Assembly: GCA_027490875.1 (NCBI GenBank)
Contig: JAIXXE010000176.1
Location: 1 to 35,026 of the forward strand
Reading direction: 5' to 3'
Origin: Alphaproteobacteria bacterium
GTDB lineage: Bacteria; Pseudomonadota; Alphaproteobacteria; UBA2136; UBA6156
Length of the DNA stretch: 35,026 nucleotides
Shown here: one piece after another, positions 3,615-33,989 of the stretch
How positions within the stretch are numbered: position 1 is the first letter of the stretch
Layout: every line of letters begins with the position of its first letter
Made by a program: the position numbers and the translations under genes
Notes under the pieces: model-generated
Database searches by the model: none
Seen by the model: the letters and a program-made list of their open reading frames with translations, nothing else
What the model was told of the DNA's origin: nothing

Positions 3615-3636
3615 AAAAAGGTTAACGGGTCGTTAA

Positions 3637-3799
3637 TATAGCGAAGCCTCTCGATACTTGTTACAAGTGTACAAGCCCCTTCATAGCGGCTCCCGCCTCC
3701 GCGAGGGTAAACTCCGGCCGCCATCCACGCTTTTTTGTTTCGTGGATCACGGCCTGCGCCGTGATGAGGGTGTACTAAATATTTATAAGCTTCGCTATA
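3637..3799. repeat. MITE-like element bounded by inverted repeats TATAGCGAAGC / GCTTCGCTATA
   Basis: An 11-bp perfect terminal inverted repeat lies at 3637-3647 and 3789-3799. Both ends continue to a GTACA / TGTAC motif about 30-40 nt inward. The interior is non-coding with two 7-bp hairpins (ATCCACG-N11-CGTGGAT and ATCACGG-N6-CCGTGAT). The same TATAGCGAAGCC terminus recurs at 34940. Confidence 0.5.
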
Positions 3800-3810
3800 A
3801 CACTTTGTTG

Positions 3811-4557
3811 TTAGGCAACCCGTCGTAAGCGCGGGAGCAGACTTATCACATTGCCGCCCACCGAAGCCGAGCTATGCGCCGGCGGCATGGTGGGCAGTGG
3901 GTCGAGCAGCAGGGCGGCGCCGCGCTCGCCCGCCACGCCATTGCGAGTGGGGTGGTAGCCCGCCCGAATTTCAAGCCCGTAATGGGTGGGCCCCAGCCGT
4001 TCGGTCAACATCGCTGCCAGCTGCATCACCAAGGCTTCTTCCACGCGGCCATCGATGTCGCTCACGCGCTTGAGGCTCCACCCCAACGATATAATGGCAC
4101 GGGGTAACCGTGTCGCCACCATCCGCACAAACTGTTCGGGCTCAAGGGCATCGCTGGCTTTTTTAGGCGCCAACAGGGCAAAGACGTCGGCATGCAGAAT
4201 GGGCGGAAGTTCGGGCCGCAGCAAGGCCAACAAGGCCACCGCAGGTTCCACCGCATTGGGGGAATGGAAATCGAGCTTGATCGCCTTATTGGCCAGCGAG
4301 GCCTGCGTTATAAAGCTGGCCAAATCAAGTTCGGCAGGCCCTCCCCGAAAGCCTTTAAGCAGGGGAACGGCGTCAGACTCTTCAAAAAAAACATTGGCTT
4401 CCAGGACATGCAGGGCAGGGTCGGCACAGGCGTTGGCCAAGGTAGCCTCGGTAACAATGCTGTGCACCCACTGCAGGTCGGCGCTGTGCGCGAGCCCAAA
4501 TGCGGTTGCCAGAGATTGCATGCGCTGATACTGCCTGAAGCAACCCGCAAAGGGCAA
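3811..4557 (-). CDS. FAM151/DUF2181 (menorin-like, GDPD-related fold) family protein, tentative
   Basis: 248 aa. The segments LQWVHSIVTEATLANACADPALHVLEANVFF, NKAIKLDFHSPNAVEPAVALL, ILHADVF and AIISLGWS parallel my memory of the FAM151 motifs WYHAAN..AL...MIEADVLL, GIKLDFKS..AVEP, INADIL and SLGW. Start could be Met13. Confidence 0.5.
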   Translation of the reverse strand: MPFAGCFRQYQRMQSLATAFGLAHSADLQWVHSIVTEATLANACADPALHVLEANVFFEESDAVPLLKGFRGGPAELDLASFITQASLANKAIKLDFHSPNAVEPAVALLALLRPELPPILHADVFALLAPKKASDALEPEQFVRMVATRLPRAIISLGWSLKRVSDIDGRVEEALVMQLAAMLTERLGPTHYGLEIRAGYHPTRNGVAGERGAALLLDPLPTMPPAHSSASVGGNVISLLPRLRRVA

Positions 4558-6624: not shown

Positions 6625-7468
6625 ATAAACTTAAAACCACCAGCAGCACGCGGCGGCCATCGGTCTCGGTAATCTCGGCCTGTATCCCCGGTGCCAAGGT
6701 AATGGCTTCGCCCTTCATGGGGATATGCTGCGCGGCCAGCAAAATCAAACCAGCCAAAGTTGTAACATCATCGGCACTTTGGCTGGCCAGCGTGGTGCCA
6801 AGCAGGCTATCGAGTGCCTCCAGCGCGACATCGCCCCGTACACGGTAACGGTGGCCCCCCAACGACACCACGGCTTCGGCCTGCGCGGCGTGCTCATCGG
6901 CCATGCTGCCCACCAGTTGTTCGAGAATATCCTTGAGGGAAATCAGGCCACTGGTACCCCCAAACTCATCCGTCACCACCACCAGCGGCACCTTGGCCCG
7001 CTTCATCTGTTGCAGCACGCGCGGCAGCGGCATGGTTTCGGGCACGACCGTTAACGGCCGCAGCAAGTCATCGAGCTTAAAGGTCTGAGGCGCGTCCAGG
7101 TGCAGCACCACATCCTTAAGCAGCAAAAAGCCTTTCAGGTCATCAAGGCTTTGGCCCATAACAGGCAGCCGACTGTGCTGACTACGACCAAACAGGGCCA
7201 GCACTTCATGAAAGGAGGCGGTATCGGGAATTGCAATAATCGCAGCGCGGGGAACGGCCACATCGTCGGCCACCAACGCACTGAAGGTTAGGGCGTTATC
7301 CATAAGGTCACGTTCGTGGTGAGTGAGCGGTACTGCGGTGCGTTCAGACAATGCGGCATAAAGCTGGGGCAGGTGAGGGCGCAGCACCTTGGCCCGATGC
7401 CAAAACTGACGCTCGTCATCCAAGCGTTGCCGGAAACGGTGCAGGGTAAGGAGCAAAAAGCGTTTCAT
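6605..7468 (-). CDS. corC: CBS-domain hemolysin/CorC family protein (YbeX-type)
   Basis: 287 aa with a CBS pair (RLPVMGQSLDDLKGFLLLKDV ... VPLVVVTDEFGGTSGLISLKDILEQLVG) and a CorC_HlyC-type C-terminus. Lies between ybeY and lnt and overlaps lnt by 20 nt. Confidence 0.85.
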   Translation of the reverse strand: MKRFLLLTLHRFRQRLDDERQFWHRAKVLRPHLPQLYAALSERTAVPLTHHERDLMDNALTFSALVADDVAVPRAAIIAIPDTASFHEVLALFGRSQHSRLPVMGQSLDDLKGFLLLKDVVLHLDAPQTFKLDDLLRPLTVVPETMPLPRVLQQMKRAKVPLVVVTDEFGGTSGLISLKDILEQLVGSMADEHAAQAEAVVSLGGHRYRVRGDVALEALDSLLGTTLASQSADDVTTLAGLILLAAQHIPMKGEAITLAPGIQAEITETDGRRVLLVVLSLYAKAHG

Positions 7469-20711: not shown

Positions 20712-21239
20712 TTAAGCCTGTGGCTGTTCGGCTGGGGCTTCCGGTGTTGCGGCAGCAGCAGTGTCGGCTTCGGCCTTGGCAGCAGCTTCAGCGGCAGCCT
20801 TGGCTTCAGCAGCGGCGGCAGCTTTGGCTTCGGCCTCGGCAACGGCCTTGGCTTCGGCGGCGGCCTTGGCTTCGGCTTCAGCGGCGGCGGCGGCCTTCAG
20901 GGCTTCGCCATGGGCTTTGCCAGCAGCAACCACACCTGCGGTTTTAATACGGCGGGTTTTTACTTTAATGAAGGCATTCCGCACGGCTTCGGGGCCAACG
21001 TTATGCTTTACCAGCAGGCGGGCCACCACATCGGTAACCTGCGCGCCCACGCCAACCCAGTAGGTGAGGCGTTCTTCGTTCAGGTTAAAGGGTACTTCGG
21101 CCCCACGGGCCTTGGGGGCATAAAAGCCCAAGCGTTCAATAAACTTTTTATCGCGGCTGGCGCGGCTGTCGGCAGCAACGATGCTATAGATAGGGAGGCT
21201 CTTGCGACCACCACGGGCCAGACGAATTTTAACGGCCAT
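20712..21239 (-). CDS. rpsP: 30S ribosomal protein S16 with Ala/Glu/Lys-rich C-terminal extension
   Basis: MAVKIRLARGGRKSLPIYSIVAADSRASRDKKFIERLGFYAP ... then about 70 aa of AAEAKAAAEA low complexity. Confidence 0.9.
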   Translation of the reverse strand: MAVKIRLARGGRKSLPIYSIVAADSRASRDKKFIERLGFYAPKARGAEVPFNLNEERLTYWVGVGAQVTDVVARLLVKHNVGPEAVRNAFIKVKTRRIKTAGVVAAGKAHGEALKAAAAAEAEAKAAAEAKAVAEAEAKAAAAAEAKAAAEAAAKAEADTAAAATPEAPAEQPQA

Positions 21240-21483
21240 TGTTTTGGCTTTCTCTTTAATCTATTACGCCACTTTATTAAAGTGACTTCCCCAAGGAACG
21301 GGGCCATCCCAAGGTTTGGAATGGAGGCACGGGGCTGGGGAATTCCAGCGCAGTGCAAGGCCCATGTAGCAAGCCACGCCAGCCTTGGCAAGGGTTTTAG
21401 CGCATCATGGGGGAATTGAACGGTATGGATAGAAGTACTTTTTGGGTGTTTATATATAAAAAGAATAACTTAAACGAATTTTC

Positions 21484-21512
21484 TTGACAGCCTGAAACAA
21501 GCAGGCTAGGGT
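21484..21512 (+). promoter_or_regulatory. sigma70-type promoter candidate with operator-like palindrome in the spacer
   Basis: TTGACA (21484-21489), a 17-bp spacer, then TAGGGT (21507-21512). An AT-rich tract lies upstream (21443-21483). The spacer is filled by the inverted repeat AGCCTG-N7-CAGGCT (21489-21507). Confidence 0.45.
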
Positions 21513-21535
21513 TCTTTCATCCTTGCAGAACTGTG

Positions 21536-21561
21536 CCGCCCCTTGAGGCGGATTTTTTATT
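21536..21561 (+). terminator. terminator-like hairpin plus T-tract between the promoter and the first cluster gene
   Basis: CCGCC (21536-21540), loop CCTTGA, GGCGG (21547-21551), then ATTTTTTATT. The stem is only 5 bp, so it is weak on its own. Confidence 0.4.
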
Positions 21562-21579
21562 CTAGGAAAGCCCCCCACC

Positions 21580-21852
21580 ATGGATGACCCTGGTTCCACC
21601 ACGCAGTTGGCGCGGCGCTTGGCCGACATCGATGACGCCATGTGGTTACGCGCCAGAGAAGGCGACGTGGCCGCTGCCAAGCTGGTGTATGCCCGCTTGG
21701 CCGAAGCCTTACCGCCACCAACACCCCCCTTGCCGCCAAGTTGGGATGCCCTGCTGACGCTGCTGCGGCAGGTTGAACATCATCATAAGGAGATAGAACG
21801 CCATGGCCTTTTGGTTAACGCTGCTAACGTGGGTGCTGGCCCGACTGGATGA
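21580..21852 (+). CDS. hypothetical small protein in the small-terminase position
   Basis: 90 aa. Its stop overlaps the TerL ATG (ATGA at 21849-21852). Helical N-terminus with a Pro-rich middle. The assignment is by position only. Confidence 0.5.
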   Translation: MDDPGSTTQLARRLADIDDAMWLRAREGDVAAAKLVYARLAEALPPPTPPLPPSWDALLTLLRQVEHHHKEIERHGLLVNAANVGAGPTG

Positions 21853-23297
21853 ATGGCGGCTGCGCGCGCCAGCCCCTAAAAATCCTCGGGCCCCGAACCG
21901 GAACTGCCGGGGTGACTAACCAACCAGCCACCACGGCACTGCTCCACCTTTGGGAAGCCCTTCAACTCTGGCAGGCTAGTCTGGGGGGCTGGTATTGCCC
22001 GCACAGTCGTCAGCAGGCCTTTCATGCCGCCGGCAGTGTGGCGCACGAGCGGCTCTTTCTTGCGGGCAACCGGGTGGGGAAGACTTTGGCCGGTGCCGCC
22101 GAGGTGGCCTTTCACCTCAGCGGGGCCTACCCCCCGTGGTGGCAAGGGGTACGGTTTAGTCAACCCGTTCAGGCTTGGGCGGCTTCGGTCACGCGGGAAG
22201 TGACGCGCGATATCTTGCAAGCCACCTACCTTGGGGGCCCAGCGGGCAACCCACGCGGCGTGATTGAGCCCGTGCGGCTGGTCGCGCAGCGGCACAAGGG
22301 CGGGGGGGCAGTGGATGTGGTGAGTGTGCGGCACCATTCGGGCGGGCTTTCGGTGCTTGGCTTTAAAAGCTTCGACCAAGGCCGGGCCAGCTTTCAGGGC
22401 ACCGCGCGGCACGTGATTCATCTGGATGAAGAACCCCCGTTGGAGGTGTATCAAGAAGCCTTGCTGCGGACTCTCACCCTGCAAGGGCACCTGCTGCTAA
22501 CGATGACGCCGCTGATGGGCCTAACCCCGTTGCTAACCCATTACCTTGGCAATGCTGGCGCTACCACGCGGGCGGGGAAGGCGGTGATTCGTGCAGGGTG
22601 GGCCGATACCTTTCACCTTAACAGCGCAGCCCAAGCAAGGTTGCGTGCCAGCTTACCACCCCACGAACTGGCGGCCCGCGAACACGGGGAAATTCGGGCA
22701 GCGCAGGGTTTGGTCTACCCGTTAGCCGAAGCCGACGTGGCGGTGCCACGGTTCGCAATTCCGGCTGGTTGGCGCCGTATCGTGGGCGTGGATTTTGGCT
22801 ACGTTGCCCCCACAGCAGCCGTATGGTTGGCCCACGATACCGCCACCGATACCGTGTATGTGACCGATACCTACGCCGTGGCCGAGCAAACCCCCGCCAC
22901 GCATGCGGCCGCAATTCTGGCGCACGGGGGTTGGCCCGCGGTATGCGACCCGGCCGGGCAAGCGGCCAGCCAACGCGACGGACTTAGCCTGATTGAACTG
23001 TACGCCGAGGCCGGGCTGCATTTTACCCTGGCCAACAACACGGTTGAATACGGCCTGATGGTGATGCTGGAGCGGTTGCGCGCGGGGACTTTAAAAGTCT
23101 TTGCCGATCTGCCCGATTGGTGGGCCGAATACCGGCTTTATCGGCGCGACAGCAAAGGCCGCGTGGTGAAGCAAGATGACCACCTGATGGATGCCACCCG
23201 CTACGCCTTGGTAAGCCTGTCGCTGGCCCGTGCTGAGAAGGAAGCCCGCAGCCTGCCAAGGCCGCGCGGCCACGCGGGCGACTGGCGCACGGTTTAG
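21849..23297 (+). CDS. phage terminase large subunit
   Basis: 482 aa. Walker A-like LAGNRVGKTLAGA, Walker B-like VIHLDEEP, and a C-terminal nuclease-like region (VGVDFGY ... DDHLMDATRYAL) typical of TerL. Confidence 0.85.
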   Translation: MNGGCARQPLKILGPRTGTAGVTNQPATTALLHLWEALQLWQASLGGWYCPHSRQQAFHAAGSVAHERLFLAGNRVGKTLAGAAEVAFHLSGAYPPWWQGVRFSQPVQAWAASVTREVTRDILQATYLGGPAGNPRGVIEPVRLVAQRHKGGGAVDVVSVRHHSGGLSVLGFKSFDQGRASFQGTARHVIHLDEEPPLEVYQEALLRTLTLQGHLLLTMTPLMGLTPLLTHYLGNAGATTRAGKAVIRAGWADTFHLNSAAQARLRASLPPHELAAREHGEIRAAQGLVYPLAEADVAVPRFAIPAGWRRIVGVDFGYVAPTAAVWLAHDTATDTVYVTDTYAVAEQTPATHAAAILAHGGWPAVCDPAGQAASQRDGLSLIELYAEAGLHFTLANNTVEYGLMVMLERLRAGTLKVFADLPDWWAEYRLYRRDSKGRVVKQDDHLMDATRYALVSLSLARAEKEARSLPRPRGHAGDWRTV

Positions 23298-23342
23298 CTC
23301 TTCTGCATCCCCACCCTGAAACATTTAAGAAAGTAAGCCCGC

Positions 23343-23666
23343 ATGAGCACGTTGACACAGACCCATATCTATACCAGCGCCGGTCGGCAGCGCCCGGTCA
23401 TCCTGCCCAGCAGCGGCACCGCGCGCTTTGTCTTGCAACTTCTGCCCGGCGATAGCGGGGTGATGCAGACCACGTGTGACCCCCCGGAACAATTAAAGCG
23501 GGGCACCGCCATCTGGGAGGACTATCAGGGTGGCATTGAAGGGGCCGTTGGCGACGTAACGGCGGTGAGGGCTGTGCTGGGTCACAACAGCGGCTGGGCC
23601 AAATTGGTGGTCCAGCATCAGGGGGATAAAGGGTTGGTACCGATGAATCAAGCAGGAGCACAATAG
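23343..23666 (+). CDS. hypothetical protein (between terminase and portal)
   Basis: A 107-aa ORF that is co-directional and tightly packed; its stop lies 2 nt before the portal ATG. No family recognised. Confidence 0.5.
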   Translation: MSTLTQTHIYTSAGRQRPVILPSSGTARFVLQLLPGDSGVMQTTCDPPEQLKRGTAIWEDYQGGIEGAVGDVTAVRAVLGHNSGWAKLVVQHQGDKGLVPMNQAGAQ

Positions 23667-23668
23667 CC

Positions 23669-25219
23669 ATGGACCCAACCGAACTGTTAACCCGTGCCCG
23701 CAGCCTGTACGAGGCAGCTGTGCAATCCCAAGCCTATACCCATTGGCAAGAGGAAGCCCGACTGGCGTGGGATTTTTACGACGGCCAGCAATGGGCACCC
23801 GAAGAAGTGGCGCGTTTGGCGGAGCTAGGGCAGCCCGCGATCGTGATTAACAAGATTGCCGCAAAAATTGATAATGTGGCCGGTACCGAAGTGGCAGGCC
23901 GGACGCGACTGGCCTACCGCAGCCGCAGCGGGGTAAAGCAAGAAGAACAGGCCGCCCGTGTCTTAACCGAGCTGTTAAGCTACACCGCCGAGCGCACCGA
24001 CCTGCCGCAGGAAATCAGTTACGCCTTTCGGGCAGGGTTGGTCAGCGGCATCGGCTGGTTGGAAATGGGGCAAGACCAAGCCGTGTTTGTGAAGGCCGAA
24101 GATGACCTGGCCGTGGTGTGGGACCCATGGGCCCGCGCGCCCGATTTAAGCGACGCCCGCTTTGTGGCGCGTACGCGGTGGCTGGACGGCGACGCGGTGG
24201 GCGTACTGTTCCCCGACCACGCCGCCAAGGTGTTAAGCGCCCTGCGCACGCAGGGCCTTAAGGGCCCCTACAGTCAACGCGGGGAAGGGCTGCTAGGCAG
24301 CCAAGGAGTACGCTACTACGACGAACGCAACGAACTGTATCGGGTAGTAGAGGTGCAGTTAAAACGGGCCGTTAAGCAGTGGCAAGTTCAGTTGCTGAGT
24401 GGCCAGATTCGGGGCTTTACCAGCCGTACCGAAGCCCGTGCCATGGCCCAAACCCCGGGCGCGCAGCTGTTGCCTCAGCAGTATATGACACAGGTGCAGG
24501 TGGTGTACTATGCGGGCGAAGTCTTGCTCCATCAGCAAACCCTGCCGAGCGAGGAGTTTACGCTGCTGCCCTACGTGTACAAACGCCACAAAGCCGATGG
24601 CCGCCCTTATGGGCTGGTGCGTGCGGCCATCGACCCCCAACGGGAGCTTAACAAACGCCGCAGCAAAGCCATGCACCTGCTCAACACCGTGCAGGTAATT
24701 GCCGACATCGACGCGGTGGACGACCCAGCCCTGTTGGCGCGGGAAGCCGCGCGCCCCGATGGGTTAATTCTGAAACGTGCGGGCAAGGATTTACGCATCA
24801 TCCGCAACGCCGATTTGGCGGCCAGCCAAGTGGCGGTGATGGAACAGGCTGGTCGGGATATTCAGGATGTTTTGGGTGTGTTCGATGAAGCCATGGGCAA
24901 GGAAAGCAACGCCCAAAGTGGGCGGGCCATTCAGCAGCGCCAGCTGGCGGGCACCTTAAATCAAATGTTTGCCTTCGATGCGCTGCGGCGGATGAAGAAG
25001 CGCCTCGGCGTTCAGTTGCTTACGTTGCTACGCCAAAGCCTTACGCCGACACAGGTGCTGCGTATTACCGACGACCTGACTGCCGCACGGCTCTTTGCGC
25101 AAGGCGCTAATAACCTTCAAGCCAGCTTTGACGTGGTGGTGGAAGAGGTACGCGACGCCCTTTCGGCCCGCGATGCAGCCATTATTGAAGCCCAACGGCC
25201 TGACTTGCTGGGGGCTTAA
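23669..25219 (+). CDS. phage portal protein (P22-like type)
   Basis: 516 aa. N-terminal WQEEARLAWDFYDGQQW motif, comparable to P22 gp1 [21 protein letters not shown]. AGGAG RBS upstream. Sits between TerL and the scaffold. Confidence 0.8.
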   Translation: MDPTELLTRARSLYEAAVQSQAYTHWQEEARLAWDFYDGQQWAPEEVARLAELGQPAIVINKIAAKIDNVAGTEVAGRTRLAYRSRSGVKQEEQAARVLTELLSYTAERTDLPQEISYAFRAGLVSGIGWLEMGQDQAVFVKAEDDLAVVWDPWARAPDLSDARFVARTRWLDGDAVGVLFPDHAAKVLSALRTQGLKGPYSQRGEGLLGSQGVRYYDERNELYRVVEVQLKRAVKQWQVQLLSGQIRGFTSRTEARAMAQTPGAQLLPQQYMTQVQVVYYAGEVLLHQQTLPSEEFTLLPYVYKRHKADGRPYGLVRAAIDPQRELNKRRSKAMHLLNTVQVIADIDAVDDPALLAREAARPDGLILKRAGKDLRIIRNADLAASQVAVMEQAGRDIQDVLGVFDEAMGKESNAQSGRAIQQRQLAGTLNQMFAFDALRRMKKRLGVQLLTLLRQSLTPTQVLRITDDLTAARLFAQGANNLQASFDVVVEEVRDALSARDAAIIEAQRPDLLGA

Positions 25220-25265
25220 GCCTTCACCCGTTAACAACGATTCTTAAAAAAGGAAGCAAACAGAT

Positions 25266-25844
25266 ATGTTCCCCTTCAAAAAGCATGCCGTACAGCCAGC
25301 CCAAACGCCGCTGAACGAAAAGCTACAGGAAATTCGCACCCAGCTAACCCAGCTGAACGACGGTGCAAAAAAAGTTGGTGGCGAGCAGGCGACGTTGAGT
25401 GACGATGCCCCGCTCCCGGCTGACAAACGCGCAGCGATTGCGCGCGACGAAACCCTCATCCGCACGGCCTTGCAAACTGTGGGCATCGATTACGACGCCC
25501 TGATTGCAACGCCTTCGCAAGAAGGTACACCTTCGCCCTATGCCTTGGCGGTGCAGGCCAACCCGGCACTGCTGCAAGATGTTCTGGGTGCTCCAACGCC
25601 CGCGTTAAAGGCCTTGGAAGTGGCGGTAAACTTTAAACCCTACGCCGAGTTCTCGGCCAAATATGGCCACGAACCAGCCGCGATTAAGGCTGCAATTCGG
25701 GCCGAAGTGCTGGCCGAAAACCCAGCCGCACCCGAAGCCCCAGAAGCGGCAACGCCCACGCTGCCCTTCAGCCGCATCCGTGGTGGCAGCAAGGCTGCAC
25801 CGGCTAAGCCCAAGGGCACCTTGAACGAGGTGTTTCGTTCCTAG
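25266..25844 (+). CDS. scaffolding protein candidate
   Basis: 192 aa, helical and Ala/Glu/Pro-rich, lying between portal and major capsid genes. Called from position and composition only. Confidence 0.55.
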   Translation: MFPFKKHAVQPAQTPLNEKLQEIRTQLTQLNDGAKKVGGEQATLSDDAPLPADKRAAIARDETLIRTALQTVGIDYDALIATPSQEGTPSPYALAVQANPALLQDVLGAPTPALKALEVAVNFKPYAEFSAKYGHEPAAIKAAIRAEVLAENPAAPEAPEAATPTLPFSRIRGGSKAAPAKPKGTLNEVFRS

Positions 25845-25889
25845 ACGCACGCGCTGCGTCCCCAAGCAACCAACCGAAAGGGTCAGGCT

Positions 25890-26927
25890 ATGCCAGCAGG
25901 CGTACCAACCATCGAAACCACCCACGGCGTAACGGCCGAAGCGTGGAGTAACGAGGTCTTCAGCGAGTACCTCAGTCAAAACCCGTTCTTCAACTTTATG
26001 GGGACGAGTTCGCATAATATCATCCAGGTGAAGGAAGAACTGACCAAACAACCCGGCGATGCCATTACCGTTCAACTGCGTGGCCGCCTAACCGGCAACG
26101 GGGTGAGTGGCATCACCAAACTAAAAGGCAGCGAAGAAGACCTGGTGTTCTACGACCAGCGCCTGCTGGTCGATACCATCCGCCACGGCGTAATGCTGCG
26201 CGGCGAAATGAGCCTGCAGCGCGTGGCGTTCGATCTGCGCAACCAAGCCCGTGAAGCCTTGGTGGATTGGGCGACCGAAAAGCTGCGGCGCGACCTCATC
26301 ACGGCGCTGACCAACACGGCCATTGGCCGCGTGCGGGCGCGTTACCTGTATGGCATCAGCGATGCCAACTGGCATGCCACCCATGCCACTGCCTTGGCGA
26401 ACGTGGATAACACCAACGACCGCCTGACCACCGCCCAAATCAGCCGCGCCAAACGCAAGGCACTGCTGGAAGGCGACCGCAAGGTGCGGCCGTTTGTGGT
26501 GAAGCAGGGCAACAAGGTGGAAGAGGTGTTTGTGCTCTTTGCGCACCCATTGGCGGTGCGGGACTTGTTGGCCGACGCCGACTTTAAGGCGCTTAACACC
26601 TACATCCCCACCACGCTGGGCGACAGCGTACTGGTGCACGGCCAACGCTACAAGGGCATGTGGGATGGCGTGATGATCTACGAAACCGAAATGCCGTTGC
26701 TGCCAACCGCCGGTGCGGGTGGCATTCAGGTGGCGCATGGCCTGCTTTGTGGGGCGCAAGCCGCCGCAGTGGCCTGGGGCAAGCGCACCAACTACAAGGA
26801 AGACCTGGATGACTACGGCCACGAAAATGGCTTCGCCATCGATGAAATCCGCGGCGTCAACAAACTGGTGTTCAACAATGCCGACCACGGCGTGGTGAAC
26901 ATCTTCAGTGCTGCGGTTGCCGACTAA
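25890..26927 (+). CDS. major capsid protein (N4-gp56 family type)
   Basis: 345 aa. AEAWSNEVFSEYLSQNPFFNFMGTSSHNIIQVKEELTKQPGDAITVQLRGRLTGNGVSG ... LVFYDQRLLVDTIRHGV matches my recollection of the N4-gp56 capsid family N-terminal pattern. Confidence 0.8.
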   Translation: MPAGVPTIETTHGVTAEAWSNEVFSEYLSQNPFFNFMGTSSHNIIQVKEELTKQPGDAITVQLRGRLTGNGVSGITKLKGSEEDLVFYDQRLLVDTIRHGVMLRGEMSLQRVAFDLRNQAREALVDWATEKLRRDLITALTNTAIGRVRARYLYGISDANWHATHATALANVDNTNDRLTTAQISRAKRKALLEGDRKVRPFVVKQGNKVEEVFVLFAHPLAVRDLLADADFKALNTYIPTTLGDSVLVHGQRYKGMWDGVMIYETEMPLLPTAGAGGIQVAHGLLCGAQAAAVAWGKRTNYKEDLDDYGHENGFAIDEIRGVNKLVFNNADHGVVNIFSAAVAD

Positions 26928-26965
26928 AACCCCGCTGAACACTGACTTAAGACCGGTTACATATC

Positions 26966-26998
26966 CCAGGGGGGCCAAATGGCCCCCCTGGCAATTTT
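26966..26998 (+). terminator. strong hairpin terminator immediately after the capsid gene
   Basis: An 11-bp perfect stem CCAGGGGGGCC / GGCCCCCCTGG (26966-26976 / 26981-26991), loop AAAT, then CAATTTT. Confidence 0.7.
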
Positions 26999-27015
26999 AA
27001 GAAAGGCAGCTACCG

Positions 27016-27642
27016 ATGCAAGTAAACACGATTCGCGACCGGATTGTTGAACTTTCGCACCAAAGCAGTACCGATGGCGACGTACGCAGCAAGGCTCTCA
27101 ACTGGCTGAATGCGGCGTATCTGGAAGCCCTGAATGAACTGCTGCTGTTGGCACCCCAAAGCCTGCAACGACGGGAAAGCGTGAACACCGACAGCACCGG
27201 CCAAGCCACCCTCAGCACGCCCCCACACGCCCTTGTTAAAGTGCTGTGGGGAGAGGTGCCCCTGCCGGTGGTAACCCCCTTGGCTCTGCTGGAGGCCGAC
27301 CCCCTTGGCACCTTGCAAGGCAACCCTGCCATGGCCTGCCCAACCGCCACAGGCGTTCAAGTGCAGCCCCGCAAGGCAGGGGCAGCCTTGGTGGTCTACA
27401 CCCCACGCCCGGTGCCCCTGGCTGAAGATGGGCCGGAGAGCAGCATTCTCATTCCACCCGCCTTTCACGACGCCCTGATTTGGGGTGGGTTGGTCTGGAG
27501 CGCGCTGTTTGAGCGGGGCCTCGGCAGTGCGGCGGAGTTACAGCTTTTTAGCCGCCAATGGGCCGAAGCCAAAACCCGCCTTAAGCTGAACCTTTTGGGG
27601 CAGGCAGGTGTACCCTTACGCGTACAAGCAGGAGACTACTAA
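27016..27642 (+). CDS. head-tail adaptor / tail-proximal protein candidate
   Basis: 208 aa. First gene after the capsid, in the position and size range of P22 gp4 or T7 gp11. No motif recognised. Confidence 0.45.
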   Translation: MQVNTIRDRIVELSHQSSTDGDVRSKALNWLNAAYLEALNELLLLAPQSLQRRESVNTDSTGQATLSTPPHALVKVLWGEVPLPVVTPLALLEADPLGTLQGNPAMACPTATGVQVQPRKAGAALVVYTPRPVPLAEDGPESSILIPPAFHDALIWGGLVWSALFERGLGSAAELQLFSRQWAEAKTRLKLNLLGQAGVPLRVQAGDY

Positions 27643-27644
27643 CC

Positions 27645-29390
27645 ATGCGCGATGACTTGCAAGAGCGTTTCTATCCCTTTCCGACCAACCTGATGGCGAC
27701 CGCCCAAAGTGCCTTGGCGCTGCCCGCGACCTACGCGCGCGAACTTACCAACATGCTGCTCGGCCCCGATGGCAGCGGCACCAAACGCCACGGCGTTACG
27801 CCGTTGGGGAGCCCAATCGATACCGAGACCATCACCGCACTGATGACCTTTGTTCACTTGGGCACCACCCAACTGCTGGCGGGCACCGATGCCGGCAAGG
27901 TGTATCGGCAAAACGGCAGCAGCTGGGTGATGCTCTGGAGCGGCCTTAACCCGCTGGCCCCGCTGCAGTGGGTGTTGTTCGGCGGGCGTTTGGTGCTGGC
28001 CAATGGGGTTGACCCTTTGCTGCAGTACGACGGCGTAAGCCTCAGTGTTGTTGAACGCCTGGTGCGCGACAGCGGCGCCAACTTAACCCTGCTGGCGGCC
28101 AACCAATTACGGCTTGAAAGCCAAGCCACACTTTACGCTGTGGGCAGTACGGTAAGGGTGCGGGTCAACGGTAACGACCTACTCGCGACCGTGCAAAGCA
28201 GCACGCAAGCTGGCGCGCAAACCACGGTCACACTTACGGCCAATGTGTTGGTAACGCCCCTAAGTGACGTATGGTTTACCGTGCGCCCCCCGACATTTGC
28301 GCAGTTGGCCGTGGCGCACGACCGACTGTGGGGTTTTGGGGCAGGGGGCTTAGGCCCTACCTTGGGCAGCAGCCCAGACCGGTTACGGGTGTATTACACT
28401 CACGGCGTGAACGACCCGACCGCGTGGCCCGACCCAGCCACCGGTATCATCCCAAGCCTCAACCTTGCCGATAAGGCTGGCGTGGCCGACGAACTGCTGG
28501 CAATGCGGGTGAAGGATGGCTTAACCGTGTTTTTAGGGCGTACCCAATTGCAGCTGTGGGAAGGCCGCACCCCCGGCACCGCGGGTGGGTTAAGTACCGA
28601 CTTTGCCTGGGTAAAAACGCTGCCTGTTGGGTTGGTGCACCCCAACGCAGTGCTGGATTTACCCAACGACCTGTTGCTGCTAACCCCTTTGGGGGCGCGC
28701 ACGCTTGCTCGCACGGTGCAAACCGAGCAGCTGGATCTGGCCGATGTAGGGCGGGCACTGGACCCAACCTTGCAAGCCCGTATAACGCAGCTGCAGGCCA
28801 ACCCCGCCGCTTATCGGCGAATGCAGGCCTTTCATTACCCGGCGCAACAATGGTTTGCGTGGGGGTTTGAAACGGAGACCCTCATTTGGCAACTGGCGGC
28901 CAGCGGCGGTGGTTGGGCCCGCTTTACCGGCGCCTTTGGCGGCTTGACCGCCGCCCATACCACGGCAGCCGGCGTGGTCTTTATCGCCAAAGGTAACCAG
29001 GTGATGCAGTACAACCCCACGGTGGCCGACGACAGCGGCGACCCCATCTCCACCCGCTGGTGGCTGCCGTGGTTAAGCCCAGGGGGTACGCGCCGCTGGG
29101 CCAACAAGTACGTGGAAGTTTTGGCAGTTGCGCAGGCCGTGCAACCGATTACGCTGGAACGCACCACCGACCTTGACGACGGTAACCCGCGCCTGATTGC
29201 GCTGGAGCTACCAGCCCCGCCCGACTACTGGGATACCGCCAGCTGGGATAGCGCCCTGTTCGACAACGCCAGCGCCCCGCCCGCCCGCGTGCGCGACCAT
29301 TGCGTCGCCCACCATCTGGCGCTGGCGGTGGTGAGCAATCACACGCAGCCGCTGCGTCTGCTGGGCCTAAAACTTCACGGCATCACGTAA
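27645..29390 (+). CDS. tail hub/nozzle-type structural protein candidate
   Basis: 581 aa. AGGAG RBS, with the start 2 nt after the previous stop. Beta-rich composition. In the position of P22 gp10 or T7 gp12. Called by position only. Confidence 0.45.
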   Translation: MRDDLQERFYPFPTNLMATAQSALALPATYARELTNMLLGPDGSGTKRHGVTPLGSPIDTETITALMTFVHLGTTQLLAGTDAGKVYRQNGSSWVMLWSGLNPLAPLQWVLFGGRLVLANGVDPLLQYDGVSLSVVERLVRDSGANLTLLAANQLRLESQATLYAVGSTVRVRVNGNDLLATVQSSTQAGAQTTVTLTANVLVTPLSDVWFTVRPPTFAQLAVAHDRLWGFGAGGLGPTLGSSPDRLRVYYTHGVNDPTAWPDPATGIIPSLNLADKAGVADELLAMRVKDGLTVFLGRTQLQLWEGRTPGTAGGLSTDFAWVKTLPVGLVHPNAVLDLPNDLLLLTPLGARTLARTVQTEQLDLADVGRALDPTLQARITQLQANPAAYRRMQAFHYPAQQWFAWGFETETLIWQLAASGGGWARFTGAFGGLTAAHTTAAGVVFIAKGNQVMQYNPTVADDSGDPISTRWWLPWLSPGGTRRWANKYVEVLAVAQAVQPITLERTTDLDDGNPRLIALELPAPPDYWDTASWDSALFDNASAPPARVRDHCVAHHLALAVVSNHTQPLRLLGLKLHGIT

Positions 29391-29411
29391 CATCAACAGA
29401 AAGAAACCCTC

Positions 29412-30713
29412 ATGGGCACCAAATATCAACGCCCCAGCGGCGCCTATGCTGGTCAGGCAGCCTTGGGCAACCGCACCAAGTATAGCGATGACAGCACCGC
29501 CACCCCTCGGCGTGCCATTTCCAGCCAGAAGATGGACGGCGACCTTAACTACCTGATTGACGCCGTGAACGGGCTGGATGATGCCAGCGGCAGCCGCACC
29601 AGTATTGCCGAGCGGCTGGATGTAAGCCTGAATGCCGACGGCACCCTTAAAGTCAGCGTGGCTGGCGCACTGGATGAGTTTGTGGTGCATCAAAGCCCTG
29701 GTAGCATTGCACGTAGCGATAACTCTACGTTCACCATGGCGGGCGGCGACTTCCGCAACCTTTACTCCGTCAATCGCCGTGTTCGCGTGGTGGTAGCGGG
29801 GCAGCCTTTGGTGGGCGATGTGGCTAGCTGCAGCTTTGGCAGCGGCCTGACTACGGTCTCGTTGGTTGACCTGACCGATACCAGCGGCAATTTGGGCATC
29901 ATAGCCGCAGCACCTACCCAGGTGGCCTATGGGCCGTTAACGCCAGGCAGCCGGGGGAACATGCCGCGCCGTACCGATGGGCTTACCTTTACTGTCGGCA
30001 GCAATACGGTAGCGTGCAATAACGAATCAGGCAGCTTGGCCTTTCGGCATAATGGCTCCCTGGTGGCCACGATAGGGTCAGGAGGGCTCAGTGGGTTGGC
30101 TGCCGGGAGCGTGAGCCCCGCCGCCCTGCAAGCCGCGGTGGCCGAGGCCCTTAACCCCGTAGGCGTGATACAAACCTATGCGGGTAATAATGCTCCTGCG
30201 GGCTGGCAGCTGTGTGCAGGGCAGGCACTCTCGCGCACCACCTTTGCGGCCCTGTTCACCGTACTTGGCACCACCTACGGGGCAGGCGATGGCAGCACGA
30301 CCTTTAACCTGCCCGACCTGCGCGGCCGCACCACCTTTGGGCTCGATAACATGGGCGGCACCGACGCCGGTCGCCTTAACACCACCAACACACTGGGGTT
30401 AGCAGGGGGGGCGCAGCTTAAAACCCTGACCAGCGATACCGTAACCTTAAGCGTGGCCAACCTGCCCAGCCACAACCACGCCACCACCATCGACAGCAAT
30501 CTGACCAGTGGCCACGGGACCGATACGGGCGGCTTGGCCCAGAGTATCCAGAACGGCACCTTCGGTTCGGACTACAACCTTGGTGGCACCAGCGGCACGC
30601 CCACACTCTTCCCCACCGCCAACAGTGGCAGCGGCACCGCCTTTACCGTGACCGATACCAACGTCGACTTCATGCCACCCTTCCTGCACCTTAACTACAT
30701 TATTAAGGTTTAG
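29412..30713 (+). CDS. tail fibre protein with phage tail-collar domain
   Basis: 433 aa. The collar-domain signature GVIQTYAGNNAPAGWQLCAGQALSRTTFAALFTVLGTTYGAGDGSTTFNLPDLRGRT and a Gly/Thr-rich C-terminus. Confidence 0.8.
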   Translation: MGTKYQRPSGAYAGQAALGNRTKYSDDSTATPRRAISSQKMDGDLNYLIDAVNGLDDASGSRTSIAERLDVSLNADGTLKVSVAGALDEFVVHQSPGSIARSDNSTFTMAGGDFRNLYSVNRRVRVVVAGQPLVGDVASCSFGSGLTTVSLVDLTDTSGNLGIIAAAPTQVAYGPLTPGSRGNMPRRTDGLTFTVGSNTVACNNESGSLAFRHNGSLVATIGSGGLSGLAAGSVSPAALQAAVAEALNPVGVIQTYAGNNAPAGWQLCAGQALSRTTFAALFTVLGTTYGAGDGSTTFNLPDLRGRTTFGLDNMGGTDAGRLNTTNTLGLAGGAQLKTLTSDTVTLSVANLPSHNHATTIDSNLTSGHGTDTGGLAQSIQNGTFGSDYNLGGTSGTPTLFPTANSGSGTAFTVTDTNVDFMPPFLHLNYIIKV

Positions 30714-30717
30714 GGGC

Positions 30718-31206
30718 ATGAACGAACCCAGCTCTCAACGTACGCCAAACCTCATCCCGCTCGCCGAAGCCGACTGGCCCGCGCTGCATCAGCTCATGTG
30801 CACGCGGCGCTTTCCGCATGTACCTGCCAGCTACCTTAAAGCAAGGCCGCAGTTTCGCAGCGCCACCTTGCTGGGGCTAAAACAGCGCCAGCAGCTGGTG
30901 GCGGCCTTTGTGTTTGGGCCGCCCGAAAATGGCGTGGCGTTTTTCGATGCCATCTGCCGCCAAGGTATGGCAGGGCGTTGGGCCACGCGCCCGTTACTTA
31001 GGCGGCTGTTTGGGGTGGCGTTTCAGCCTGCGCCCGTGGGCCTTGGCCTGCGGGCAGTGTGGGTGCAGCCGCATGGCCCTACCGCCTTAAAAGCCTGCCT
31101 GCAAGCGGGGTTTCAGGCCGTCACGCCGCTGCGTGGCAGCCGCGAGGCCCCGGTGTTGGTGCTAACACCCCATACTGTGTCGTCAATCATGCAAGGAAAG
31201 TTCTAG
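30718..31206 (+). CDS. hypothetical protein (weak GNAT-like C-terminal pattern, or fibre accessory)
   Basis: 162 aa, starting 4 nt after the fibre stop. ...RQGMAGRWATRPLLRRLFGVAF...GLRAVWVQPHGPTALKACLQAGFQAV loosely resembles GNAT motifs A/B, but the Q/R-x-x-G-x-G/A loop is not intact. Confidence 0.4.
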   Translation: MNEPSSQRTPNLIPLAEADWPALHQLMCTRRFPHVPASYLKARPQFRSATLLGLKQRQQLVAAFVFGPPENGVAFFDAICRQGMAGRWATRPLLRRLFGVAFQPAPVGLGLRAVWVQPHGPTALKACLQAGFQAVTPLRGSREAPVLVLTPHTVSSIMQGKF

Positions 31207-31209
31207 CCT

Positions 31210-31986
31210 ATGGGAAGCCTCTTTAAACCAAAGCAACCAGCCCCGCCGCCACCCGCACCGCCCGTTTTGGTGCGCGACGAAGTGAACGGCGTGGAGCAAG
31301 TGCCCATCACCGATGCCAACGGTGCGACCACCTATGTTACGCGCCCAATTGCCCTCACGCCCCAGCAGCAGGCCGAGCGCGACGAGATTAACCGCATCGT
31401 CAGCGACAGCCTGACCGAAATTAACCGCCTTTCCCGAACCGACTACGCCCCCGATACCACCACCCAAAAGGTGCTGGATGATTGGCAGGCCCGCCAAGAG
31501 CAGCTGTTGGCCGAAGGCAACCAACGGCGCAGCCAGCAGGAAGAAGAACGGCTGGCCCAACGCGGGCTGGCCGACAGCACCGCCGCGCAAGGCGTACGTC
31601 GGCAGCGGGCGCTGGATGAACAGGATTCGCGCAGCACTGTGGGGCTGGCCCGCACCGAGCTGGCCAACCAAATCCGTGGCGAACGGCTGGCCCTGCAACA
31701 GAACCTGTTCAACACCGCCAGCGGGCTGAAGGATGCCAGCCAAGCCCGCACCGCCCGTGCGGCTACAGCAGGGCTTGGCGATGCCGTGGCGCTCAATGCC
31801 CAACGCCAGGCCAGCCTGCTGGATTACTACAATTCCGCCAATCGCAGCAACGGCAGCGTGTTTGCCGATGCCTTGGGCCGCAGCGCAGGCAACACAGTCG
31901 GCCGCACCGTTGGTGGTGCCATCGGCGGCCCGTTGGGCAGCGGCGTTGGCAGCCTGTTGGGCAGTTGGCTGTTTGGTCGGCGTTAA
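31210..31986 (+). CDS. virion internal/ejection protein candidate with C-terminal glycine zipper
   Basis: 258 aa. MGSLFKPKQPAPPPPAPP N-terminus, a Gln/Arg-rich coiled-coil middle, and the C-terminus GRTVGGAIGGPLGSGVGSLLGSWLFGRR. Confidence 0.45.
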   Translation: MGSLFKPKQPAPPPPAPPVLVRDEVNGVEQVPITDANGATTYVTRPIALTPQQQAERDEINRIVSDSLTEINRLSRTDYAPDTTTQKVLDDWQARQEQLLAEGNQRRSQQEEERLAQRGLADSTAAQGVRRQRALDEQDSRSTVGLARTELANQIRGERLALQQNLFNTASGLKDASQARTARAATAGLGDAVALNAQRQASLLDYYNSANRSNGSVFADALGRSAGNTVGRTVGGAIGGPLGSGVGSLLGSWLFGRR

Positions 31987-32014
31987 TGCTCATTGAAATA
32001 GGAAAGCGAACCGG

Positions 32015-32383
32015 ATGAATCACCAAGCAGTACAAAACTGGCTCGACCAAGAATTTCTCCCTTGGCAGGCCAAAGCACGCAGTTACGCCGCCGAAAAGCA
32101 AGCCCTGCAGCAACGGTTGCGGCAACAGCTCCCCGCCCTCCAAACTCTGGTTGGGCTGTTGCTGGAAGGCCAAACCAAACGGGCCGTCATGGCCTGGAAC
32201 AGCCTGGGGCTTGAACCCCTGCTGGCCGAAATTGTGCTGAACCGTACCGGCACCGAAGTTATGCTGAGGGCCAAAGGCGGCAGGACCGAAGTGGTGAACC
32301 TCGATGAGGTCATCGCCACGTTACAGCAGTTAAGCCGCGACCCTGTGGCTACTCCTTTGCCTGAGCCAGCAACCGCGCCTTAA
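32015..32383 (+). CDS. hypothetical protein
   Basis: A 122-aa ORF with a GGAAAG RBS. It is the last + strand gene before the lysis cassette, and its 3' end overlaps the convergent minus-strand gene by 35 nt. Confidence 0.5.
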   Translation: MNHQAVQNWLDQEFLPWQAKARSYAAEKQALQQRLRQQLPALQTLVGLLLEGQTKRAVMAWNSLGLEPLLAEIVLNRTGTEVMLRAKGGRTEVVNLDEVIATLQQLSRDPVATPLPEPATAP

Positions 32384-32912
32384 TATCTTCGGCCAACTTA
32401 CGGTCAGATTCAGGATTGTGCCGTTCTTCCACAATCATGGTGCTCAGCAACGCCTGCCAGTCCTCTTCTTGCGCCTGCGGAAAGATGCGTTGATCGAGGT
32501 ACACTTCCCAAAACAGCGCAACTTCGTTGGCGAGGCGTGGGTCGATGATGCTCTGGCGTTGGTAGCCCAAAATAGCGGTATCGTGCAGCGAGACAATCAC
32601 CTGCTTGCGGGTATGGTAAGCCAGGTTACCGCGGTAGCCACGGCCAAGCACGGGCCCAAGCAATGTGTAGACTTCGTCCTCAGCCTGTATCAGCCCCGGG
32701 GCGCAGCGGGTGTCGTTTGGCACCAGATAGCCAAAGCGGGTAATCAGGTCGGCGGTGGCGGGGGGGAAGTCAAAATCAATCTCATCGCCTTGGCGGGTCA
32801 GCACAATGTTATAGCGCTGGGGCGTTAGAGGGCCGGTGGCCACAGGTTTATCGGTAGGGGTGGTCAGTTCTTTAAGTTCCTTGACCGAAGTTTTGCCAGA
32901 CATACCGTTCAT
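32349..32912 (-). CDS. hypothetical protein, the only reverse-strand gene in the cluster
   Basis: The track ORF begins at 32990, but its first 26 codons are Cys/Phe-rich and overlap the lysis promoter region. Met at 32912 (MNGMSGKTS...) or 32903 is more plausible, giving about 184-187 aa. No family recognised. Confidence 0.5.
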   Translation of the reverse strand: MNGMSGKTSVKELKELTTPTDKPVATGPLTPQRYNIVLTRQGDEIDFDFPPATADLITRFGYLVPNDTRCAPGLIQAEDEVYTLLGPVLGRGYRGNLAYHTRKQVIVSLHDTAILGYQRQSIIDPRLANEVALFWEVYLDQRIFPQAQEEDWQALLSTMIVEERHNPESDRKLAEDIKARLLAQAKE

Positions 32913-32942
32913 CTTAAGGAAATCACACCCGCAAGGCAACCC

Positions 32943-32971
32943 TTGACACCGCGCAAAGTGGTAAAATAAGC
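32943..32971 (+). promoter_or_regulatory. promoter candidate for the lysis cassette (extended -10)
   Basis: TGGTAAAAT at 32959-32967 fits the extended -10 pattern TGnTATAAT. TTGACA at 32943-32948 is only 13 bp upstream of TAAAAT. Alternatively, TTGACA-17 bp-ATAAGC (32966-32971) could serve. Confidence 0.45.
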
Positions 32972-32988
32972 ACAGAAAGGAAGCACGC

Positions 32989-33159
32989 ATGGAACTCGAC
33001 GTGATCGTGTCAGAACTCCGCGCCCTGCGCGAAGACTTACAGGGTATCCGTAACGATATACAACACTACCAAGGCTTTGTGGGCGGCGTGGCTTGGGTGG
33101 TTGGCGGCGTGGCCGCCGTTGCCAGCTTTGCCTTCAGCTGGCTGCAGGAGGTCATCTAA
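32989..33159 (+). CDS. small single-TM protein (holin/antiholin/spanin-like), not in the ORF track
   Basis: Hand translation gives MELDVIVSELRALREDLQGIRNDIQHYQGFVGGVAWVVGGVAAVASFAFSWLQEVI (56 aa). AAGGAAG RBS 5 nt upstream. Its stop overlaps the amidase ATG as TAATG (33157-33161). Confidence 0.6.
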   Translation: MELDVIVSELRALREDLQGIRNDIQHYQGFVGGVAWVVGGVAAVASFAFSWLQEVI

Positions 33160-33572
33160 TGCCCCCCCCAATTGCGTCCTCAATTGCCCCACCCATGCGC
33201 CGTATCACCCGGCATATCATTCATTGCAGCGCCTCTACCTTTGGCGATGTGGCCGAAATCCGCCGTTGGCATCTGGCCCGCGGCTGGCGGGATATTGGCT
33301 ACCACTTTGTCATTCGGCGTGATGGTGAGGTTGAAGTAGGCCGGATGCTGCCAGAAATTGGCGCCCATTGCGAAGGCTTCAACCGCGACAGTATCGGCAC
33401 CTGCCTGATTGGCGACCAAACCTTCACCGAGGCGCAGTTTACCACCTTGCGCCGCGTGCACGCGTTGCTCTGCCAGCAGTTCCCCGGGCTTACGGCCCAT
33501 GGTCACCGGGACTTCAACCCCCACAAAACCTGCCCCAACTTTCAGGTTTCAACTGTTCTAGGAAAGGCTTAA
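33159..33572 (+). CDS. N-acetylmuramoyl-L-alanine amidase endolysin (T7-lysozyme/PGRP type)
   Basis: ITRHIIHCSAS...WHLARGWRDIGYHFVIRRDGEVEVGR...GAHCEGFNRDSIGTCLIGD...AHGHRDFNPHKTCPNF is the Amidase_2 pattern. I place the start at ATG 33159 (AGGAGG RBS at 33146-33151) rather than the track start at 33093. Confidence 0.85.
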   Translation: MPPPIASSIAPPMRRITRHIIHCSASTFGDVAEIRRWHLARGWRDIGYHFVIRRDGEVEVGRMLPEIGAHCEGFNRDSIGTCLIGDQTFTEAQFTTLRRVHALLCQQFPGLTAHGHRDFNPHKTCPNFQVSTVLGKA

Positions 33573-33575
33573 CAC

Positions 33576-33989
33576 ATGCTGAACTTGGCAAAACCCATGC
33601 TCGGGGCGCTGGCCGATGTGCTGCTTTCCCGCAAGGCCGAGCTGGCCCAACAGACGGGCCTGCCGGAAGACGCAGTCGGGAAGGTCAGCGCCGCGGTCAG
33701 CGAGTTCCTGACCCGCGACGAACGTGCGGCCAGCGCCGTCATGGCGGAAGTTGAAAAGGCCCGCAGCCACGATGTGGCGTTGGCCGATAACGCCCCACCG
33801 CTGGTACAACTGCTGCGGGGGCTGGTACGGCCGATTATAACCCTCGCAGCATGTTTTTGGTATATCGGGGCACGGCTCTATGGTATCCCGCTGGGCCCAG
33901 AAGATTATGCCATCATAGGGGGTATCATGGCGTTCTGGTTCGGCTTTCGGCCTTTTGAAAAGGGGTTGGAGTCGCGCCTGCGCCCCTAG
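33576..33989 (+). CDS. 3-TM holin of the GTA-release type (DUF3154-like)
   Basis: 137 aa. Soluble helical N-terminal half, then hydrophobic segments (LVRPIITLAACFWYIGARLYG, YAIIGGIMAFWFGF). It starts 3 nt after the amidase stop. The family assignment is from memory of the layout. Confidence 0.6.
   Translation: MLNLAKPMLGALADVLLSRKAELAQQTGLPEDAVGKVSAAVSEFLTRDERAASAVMAEVEKARSHDVALADNAPPLVQLLRGLVRPIITLAACFWYIGARLYGIPLGPEDYAIIGGIMAFWFGFRPFEKGLESRLRP

Follow-up and report, generated by a model that had tools for sequence, protein, structure and literature searches.

Late control in lambdoid phages is laid out as gene Q, the promoter PR' with its Q-binding element, the terminator tR' (6S RNA) and the late genes, and in Pseudomonas aeruginosa the AlpA protein acts as the antiterminator of lysis and pyocin genes. 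Terminator-gated promoters that are released by processive antiterminators are known from the lambdoid phages and have recently been described in two unrelated gene transfer agents (GTAs). Lambda Q, AlpA and GafZ have their binding elements between the -35 and -10 hexamers (PMC11150451). Concerning the GTAs, that of Caulobacter crescentus (CcGTA) is under the control of GafY/GafZ (PMC11150451), proteins of the GafA/GafZ type having a sigma-region-4-like fold (bioRxiv 10.1101/2024.11.20.624540), and that of Bartonella (BaGTA) uses BrrG, a Q21-like processive antiterminator, together with a promoter, a terminator and a -10-like element (bioRxiv 10.1101/2024.11.20.624540). Here we present a candidate system of this kind in the window, by which we mean the whole 35,026-nt stretch of DNA that was analysed, a contig (JAIXXE010000176.1, our C91) of the 1.4-Mb, 181-contig assembly of an alphaproteobacterium of the UBA6156 lineage (genome G000). 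Ahead of a phage-derived gene cluster, the window holds a promoter-like sequence with the hexamer TGAAAC in its spacer and a terminator-like hairpin directly behind it, a combination that we call a cassette and that recurs at four other loci of the genome. The reading that we favour, and regard as fairly probable, is that of a constitutive sigma-70 promoter gated by the leader terminator and released through processive antitermination by a protein of the type encoded on contig C43.

The resemblance to lambdoid late control extends to several features. A strong-looking promoter is followed by an intrinsic terminator at which transcripts are predicted to stop before the packaging, head, tail and lysis genes, a conserved element lies between -35 and -10, and the operon has internal terminators; additionally, the succession of regulator, promoter, terminator and packaging genes in six relatives corresponds to the order of Q, PR' and tR'. 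In contrast to the lambdoid case, neither the sequence nor the fold of the regulator matches a Q family, its gene lies not upstream of the promoter but on C43 in the source genome, the leaders of the nine cassettes of the window's genus measure 23-66 nt to the end of the U-run as against ~190 nt, no sigma-dependent pause element was identified in the window leader, control is spread over five chromosomal loci, and the cluster, in which no replication or integration genes were seen, tracks host taxonomy. The AlpA system is similar in that one small DNA-binding factor serves several promoters, each having a spacer element and a downstream intrinsic terminator, and in that these promoters jointly control phage-derived killing and particle genes. 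AlpA has, however, no significant similarity to the regulator, and both the lineage and the particle type are different.

With CcGTA the locus shares a domesticated, phage-like alphaproteobacterial cluster that, with its accessory loci, would stand under one factor, a putative binding element between -35 and -10, and an apparent need for terminator read-through along the whole cluster; a sigma-region-4-like character is common to GafA/GafZ and the regulator. Unlike the degenerate -35 of CcGTA, which needs GafY and IHF, the -35 here is of consensus sequence; the terminator stands before the first gene and not after it, and the HK97-like, siphovirus-type structural genes of CcGTA are replaced by a P22-type portal and an SU10-type adaptor. 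As would be the case here, the BaGTA promoter overlaps the site of its factor, a leader terminator keeps the capsid operon off, and the factor is encoded at another locus. BaGTA differs in its ~860-bp leader with a demonstrated -10-like element and in the structurally Q21-like nature of BrrG, whereas the regulator described here gave no Q21 match.

The control region and its conservation

All of the elements in question lie in a gap of 340 bp that separates rpsP from the cluster's first plus-strand gene, and they are given here with their positions in the window:

20712-21239, minus strand: rpsP (Ribosomal_S16 match), divergent from the cluster
21443-21483, plus strand: AT-rich tract ending in GAATTTTC, upstream of the -35 (read from the sequence)
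21484-21489, plus strand: -35 hexamer TTGACA, exact consensus, followed by a 17-nt spacer
21489-21507, plus strand: inverted repeat AGCCTG-N7-CAGGCT, filling the -35/-10 spacer
21493-21498, plus strand: TGAAAC spacer element, conserved between -35 and -10, here inside the palindrome
21507-21512, plus strand: -10 hexamer TAGGGT, a 3/6 match to TATAAT with A2 and T6 kept
21519-21558, plus strand: predicted leader of ~40 nt, its start placed 7 nt past the -10, which would be a short terminated transcript
21536-21561, plus strand: terminator-like hairpin CCGCC-CCTTGA-GGCGG, then ATTTTTTATT (generic scan and folding); CCGCC at 21536-21540, loop CCTTGA, GGCGG at 21547-21551, A-T6-A-TT to 21561
21564-21570, plus strand: ribosome-binding site (RBS) AGGAAAG (read from the sequence)
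21580, plus strand: ATG of the first cluster gene (read from the sequence)

An initial annotation of the window had proposed the AT-rich tract, TTGACA-17-TAGGGT, the palindrome, the hairpin with its U-run, the RBS and the ATG at 21580, and each of them lies where it had been placed; its estimate of a roughly 40-nt leader is reasonable as well, given a start 7 nt past the -10. The hairpin, whose 5-bp stem was confirmed, was called terminator-like by a generic scan (5 pairs, all G-C, loop of 6), and its computed folding energy is -9.3 kcal/mol (z -2.1 for a 33-nt piece, with 6/200 shuffles as good). The 28 nt from the hairpin to the ATG are too few to accommodate a second promoter after the terminator. 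The AT-rich tract may serve as an UP-element, and the bases '(c)gAaTTTTC' immediately before TTGACA are kept in 7/9 same-genus cassettes in the alignment. At the gathering score, Rfam recovered one tRNA only from the window and no riboswitch, leader or small-RNA family, and at E <= 1 it gave zero matches within 21200-21620. On the other side of the gap, the minus-strand block upstream of rpsP (21242-21420) is GC-rich, with several possible hairpins and no Rfam match at E <= 1; its sequence is retained in G002 and in G003 (in the latter with 75% identity over ~120 nt), and it may be a leader of rpsP.

Conservation was studied in 29 genomes (G000-G028) of one order; the locus counts given below come from mutually related genomes and, because of this kinship, are not independent observations. 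Sequence upstream of the first gene was available for 15 related genomes, and in 12 of them (G000, G002, G003, G005, G009, G013, G014, G018, G022, G024, G027 and G028) a putative promoter and then a terminator-like hairpin stand directly upstream of TerS, the small-terminase-like first gene. The order in these relatives is TTGAC[AT], 17 nt, a -10-like hexamer, a short leader, a GC hairpin, T6-8 and the RBS. TTGAC[AT] is found at 11/12 of the orthologous sites, G018 having TTGCGC in its place and showing the terminator together with a weaker promoter match. In G008 and G010 it is the regulator gene that directly precedes the cassette, with TerS further downstream, and in G020 (L061, C32) the cassette is upstream of a regulator-TerS pair in which TerS begins 17 nt past the regulator gene; in G020 the gate would then also control the regulator itself, possibly as a form of positive feedback.

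The stems vary from genome to genome (CUGCCG/CGGCGG in G013, CGCUG/CAGCG in G009, AGCUCGCC/GGCGGGCU in G022 and CCGCCUU/AAGGUGG in G028), from which it follows that the structure and the position of the hairpin are retained and not its sequence. A strict detector of perfect-stem terminators responded to 8/13 upstream regions in the sense orientation and to none in the antisense orientation, 0.34 being expected from dinucleotide shuffles. Four of its five misses fold as bulged hairpins with T7-8, and the fifth is G020, which has no cassette at that place.

Two further sites were met in the course of this comparison. In G004 (L022 ~1520-1620, C99), TTGACA-17-TATGTT followed by GGCGC-TAGA-GCGCT-T7 lies just past TerL and forms a second cassette within the cluster; it was left out of the count of cassettes upstream of TerS. 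In G003 (L007 2182-2781, C113), an extra gene of 199 aa is established between rpsP and the cassette, with no family match, with no counterpart in G000 and G002, and with a strong terminator of its own. That the terminator is merely the end of an upstream gene was ruled out, as rpsP is divergent and the extra gene of G003 has its own terminator before the promoter.

Dispersed cassettes and the candidate regulator

The pattern TTGACA-N2-3-TGAAAC occurs five times in the source genome and the reversed control pattern not once, against an expectation of ~0.15 that was derived from 348 TTGACA and 605 TGAAAC in 2.83 Mb (both strands). The five sites are C79:2550, C90:3547, C91:21484 (the window site) and two paralogous copies on C105, and each of them is followed by a GC hairpin and a U-run 7-25 nt past its -10-like hexamer. 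G002 has three such sites, one of which is the ortholog of C79, and G003 has one, bringing the window's genus (g1: G000, G002 and G003) to nine cassettes in total (5 + 3 + 1). Specifically, the C79 cassette, which has two tandem terminators (its G002 ortholog also has two, of different sequences), precedes the gene of a 423-aa tail protein (phrog_5939, E 1e-63). The C90 cassette precedes genes for proteins of 183 aa and 92 aa, whose homologs are found between TerS and TerL in G006 and G020. The copies on C105 have DUF6973 genes downstream in the same orientation, not immediately adjacent, and homologs of these genes occur within the cluster of G005 and, in G006, immediately past TerL. The main cluster and the dispersed accessory loci are thereby joined by one shared promoter type (five loci in G000, three in G002).

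Alignment of the nine cassettes shows TTGACA to be identical in 9/9 and TGAAAC to be present in 9/9, the latter beginning 2 or 3 nt after TTGACA and, correspondingly, ending 9 or 8 nt before the -10. The distance between -35 and -10 is 17 nt in the seven cassettes outside C105, and this constant spacing, with the offset of TGAAAC shifting inside it, suggests that the promoter is of the sigma-70 type and that its spacer element is a separate one. The -10 hexamers are TATGTT and CAAATT at the orthologs of the window site, with the same spacing, and TATGGT, TAAATT, CATAAT and TAATCT in the other cassettes outside C105; A2 and T6 are kept across the genus cassettes and in most orthologs. In most other genera an AAC-type element (CACAAC, CGCAAC, AGCAAC, TCCAAC, GAACAAC or CGAAAC) occupies the same place of the spacer. 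No conserved -10 was found at 16-17 nt after TGAAAC in the nine-cassette alignment, in which the partners of the element are TTGACA upstream and TAnnnT 8-11 nt downstream. That TGAAAC might itself be a -35 of the extracytoplasmic function (ECF) type was ruled out, there being no -10 at the right distance, whereas the spacing from TTGACA to the -10 is what persists.

The leader sequences are unrelated between cassettes, and those of C90 and C105 consist almost of the hairpin alone. In several cassettes a -10-like element with 4-5/6 matches can be found by eye near the start (e.g., TATAGT, TACATT and CATGAT). We also considered the cassettes as copies of a mobile repeat and ruled this out, since they are unrelated to each other outside TTGACA, TGAAAC and the common layout, with the exception of the two C105 paralogs. 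On C105 (reverse-complement 3600-3880 and 6640-6925) a repeated non-coding unit of ~300 nt stands before each cassette and ends in its own hairpin and T-run (cacccgccgttagcgggtttttt); a structured leader RNA is one possibility for it. Outside genus g1, the sites that fit TTGACA-N2-3-TGAAAC are either within coding sequence or devoid of a terminator, and they were treated as chance. For genus g7, the pattern TTGACA-N-GTG-N-C-N-CAAC gave one match per genome, that of G001 lying within a coding region, so that this strict pattern reveals no dispersed regulon in g7.

The candidate regulator is a 213-aa orphan protein, with a putative DNA-binding domain resembling sigma region 4, that is encoded at C43:7162-7800 of G000, between glyA-like and msrA-like genes. 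In G022, G024 and G028 only a few bases lie between the end of a homologous gene of ~190 aa and the promoter, and altogether six genomes (G005, G008, G020, G022, G024 and G028) have the regulator immediately ahead of the cluster and in its orientation. The family is present in 23/29 genomes of the order and in 19/19 of those that have TerL. Regulator and TerL are both missing from three f4 genomes, one f6 genome, G012 and G016, and G017, which has no TerL, shows a weak regulator match interrupted by stop codons. A profile search among 1.84 billion representative proteins gave 67 cluster representatives of the family, and searches of GenBank phages, IMG/VR and a sample of 199 Alphaproteobacteria from beyond this order gave no member of it. 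In the majority of genomes a gene of the YbjQ family, with its terminator, precedes that of the regulator (L054-L058, L064, L066, L069 and L081). The YbjQ site looks like the ancestral one, with the cluster attached there in G005, G008, G022 and G028, and it looks as if both regulator and cluster have moved away from it in the window's genus.

At the level of sequence the regulator resembles sigma70-ECF only faintly (E ~0.03); a homolog is annotated as 'sigma24 family' in one source. Its AlphaFold model has a mean pLDDT of 74.8. Structurally, the model comes closest to region 4 of ECF sigma factors in the PDB (prob 1.0, E 0.1) and to small sigma-like phage proteins in BFVD. No Q structure is among the 50 best Foldseek matches listed, and a chain of an AlpA-loaded complex (7xyb_G) was matched with E 0.38 and prob 0.18. 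We regard TGAAAC as the candidate binding site of this protein.

Proposed antitermination and the competing explanations

From the sequence elements and their conservation, the multi-copy regulon and the regulator's co-occurrence and linkage with the cluster, we infer promoter activity, termination, binding and antitermination itself. A sigma-70-type promoter, with its consensus -35, fixed 17-nt spacing and weak -10, would produce an RNA that runs into the GC hairpin and U-run ~18 nt past the likely start, and unmodified polymerase would mostly release a transcript of ~40 nt there and never reach the terminase gene. With rpsP divergent and no start possible in the short piece from the hairpin to the ATG, all transcripts of the operon would have to cross the terminator. 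Expression of the operon would hence need a terminator-resistant polymerase, and the same would apply to the four other cassette loci with their one or two terminators. The C43 protein would recognise TGAAAC between -35 and -10 and load onto the polymerase at this place, like lambda Q, AlpA and GafZ. In related clusters (G009, G022 and G005) intrinsic terminators recur after the TerL, scaffold-like and capsid genes. The window cluster has, of these positions, only the post-capsid hairpin, which may terminate in part and would be passed by a resistant polymerase; both the internal terminators of the relatives and this hairpin fit processive read-through. The cluster and the four other phage-derived loci are probably expressed only once the dedicated regulator permits read-through of their terminators.

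The initial annotation had suggested termination and antitermination at the leader, with a releasing factor encoded outside the window. The first suggestion is backed by the order-wide conservation of promoter and terminator, by the four other loci and by the existence of a candidate factor, and for the second the protein on C43, which co-occurs with the cluster and is encoded directly upstream of it in six relatives, appears to be a suitable candidate. Several observations nonetheless weigh against antitermination by this protein. In G000 it is unlinked to the cluster and encoded on another contig, and in G020 the cassette comes before the regulator gene and not after it. Searches with the regulator sequence revealed no detectable similarity to entries of Pfam, NCBIfam or the PDB nor, with PHROG added, any match to an antiterminator, and Foldseek gave no match at E <= 0.001 against the PDB, Q-lambda, Q21 and AlpA included. 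Its fold hints, taken from a predicted model, would suit a small sigma-like activator equally well. At the promoter, the -10 hexamer is weak and the site was not called by a generic promoter scan, because TAGGGT agrees with TATAAT at only 3/6 positions, and no -10-like element with A2 and T6 was seen in the initially transcribed region of the window leader (by eye, in the alignment). Finally, the window hairpin, at 5 bp and the folding energy given above, is the weakest of the set, so that in this species some leakage through the gate of the main cluster may occur.

A leaky gate is also the starting point of the main rival explanation, one without any antitermination, which we consider rather unlikely. 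The terminator would only lower the basal expression of an activator-dependent promoter, and the sigma-4-like protein, acting as an activator of late genes or as a small alternative sigma (as RinA/ArpU, or GafA as first described), would raise initiation until enough polymerases leak through. AAC-type motifs are typical ECF -35 elements, and the resemblance of the spacer motif to them fits this explanation, as do the weak -10 hexamers (TAGGGT, CAAATT), the window hairpin of just 5 bp, the fold matches of the regulator to sigma region 4 and to small sigma-like or activator proteins of phages, and the annotation of a homolog as 'sigma24 family'. However, a perfect TTGACA at a fixed 17 nt usually removes the need for an activator, and no -10 is conserved at the distance from TGAAAC that such a sigma factor would call for (16-17 nt). 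Tandem terminators (C79, G002 and G005) and terminators inside the operon would, moreover, be hard to leak past. The same side is taken by the report that a consensus -35 put into a GTA promoter makes it constitutive (PMC11150451).

The initial annotation had also envisaged a repressor on the spacer palindrome, in which case this protein would control the promoter and the hairpin would be of minor importance. The 6-bp inverted repeat does span the spacer exactly, and with -8.6 kcal/mol (z -2.8) only 1/200 shuffles folds as well, but 3/6 of its positions are kept in the G002 ortholog, none in that of G003, and the repeat is in none of the eight other genus cassettes, whereas TGAAAC and the terminator are kept in all. 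Since the palindrome is not conserved upstream of homologous clusters or in the other cassettes, TGAAAC being the conserved spacer element, there is no support for an operator and we attach very little probability to it. We think just as little of the idea that the short transcripts are themselves the product, i.e., small RNAs of 23-66 nt made of a seed and a terminator hairpin, the downstream genes being read from elsewhere. A promoter followed by a terminator is indeed the anatomy of a small-RNA gene, but the leaders have no sequence in common, those of C90 and C105 being nearly all hairpin, no Rfam family was matched, there is no space for another promoter ahead of the downstream genes, and phage-derived genes in the same orientation lie behind every cassette. 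That promoter-like and terminator-like motifs have met by chance in an AT-rich intergenic region is hardly credible at all. A generic scan does find about as many terminator-like sites in shuffled sequence as in the region (4.3 expected, 6 found), but chance is already refuted by the comparative data, i.e., the conservation of the layout across the order and the five copies in one genome that share a 12-base motif. Antitermination by the C43-type protein is the reading that we retain as fairly probable.

The cluster behind the proposed gate and its possible meaning

Downstream of the proposed gate, the window contains the following features:

21580-21852, plus strand: first gene, 90-aa small-terminase-like (TerS) protein, aligned to the C-terminal half of its relatives
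21849-33989, plus strand: downstream operon with TerL, portal, scaffold-like, capsid, adaptor and tail proteins, a collar-domain fibre and lysis genes
26966-26998, plus strand: internal 11-bp GC hairpin after the capsid gene, then CAATTTTA, a weak T-run

The TerS relatives of other genera are proteins of 121-158 aa that precede TerL and have an N-terminal helix-turn-helix domain, and a full-length one matches phrog_24579 (small terminase, E 9.5e-12). In the window's genus only the C-terminal half is represented, and the N-terminal helix-turn-helix has no counterpart. The small terminase of RcGTA is reportedly also devoid of the DNA-recognition part, and the truncation seen here may have a bearing on whether the particles package random host DNA. 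Pfam matches in the operon are Terminase_6N/6C, P22_portal, Phage_capsid_3, SU10_adaptor and Collar, and a 581-aa protein matches phrog_5107, which PHROGs annotates as amidase. Before the lysis genes there is another promoter-like site (32944-32990, with TTGACA, 13 nt, TAAAAT, preceded by TGG), which has neither TGAAAC nor a terminator and, if real, would be a lysis-gene promoter of a type distinct from the five cassettes. TerL is present in 19/29 genomes of the order, with an identity of 80% within the genus, 57-66% within the family and 50-59% with other families. It is this fall of identity with taxonomic distance that shows the cluster to track host taxonomy, and we read the cluster as a domesticated, short-tailed-phage-like gene set.

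A wider proposal, which we consider possible rather than probable, is that the regulator represents a new family of processive antiterminators, unrelated in sequence to Q-lambda, Q21 and AlpA, that loads at an AAC-type spacer element and switches on a dispersed regulon for a previously undescribed, podovirus-derived and vertically inherited particle, possibly a new type of GTA, in Alphaproteobacteria with small genomes. If the favoured reading is true, it would add a third, independent domesticated particle system, of another structural type (P22-type portal, SU10-type adaptor and short tail), to the two GTAs in which such control has been described. Its gate would be very compact, and in this genus its regulon would extend over several scattered loci. 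The comparison yields items that can be tested, namely the spacer element TGAAAC, a defined set of target loci and a named candidate factor. Confirmation would provide a minimal promoter-terminator-factor module of ~80 bp for study, and would support antitermination as a general way in which bacteria silence lethal phage-derived particle genes.

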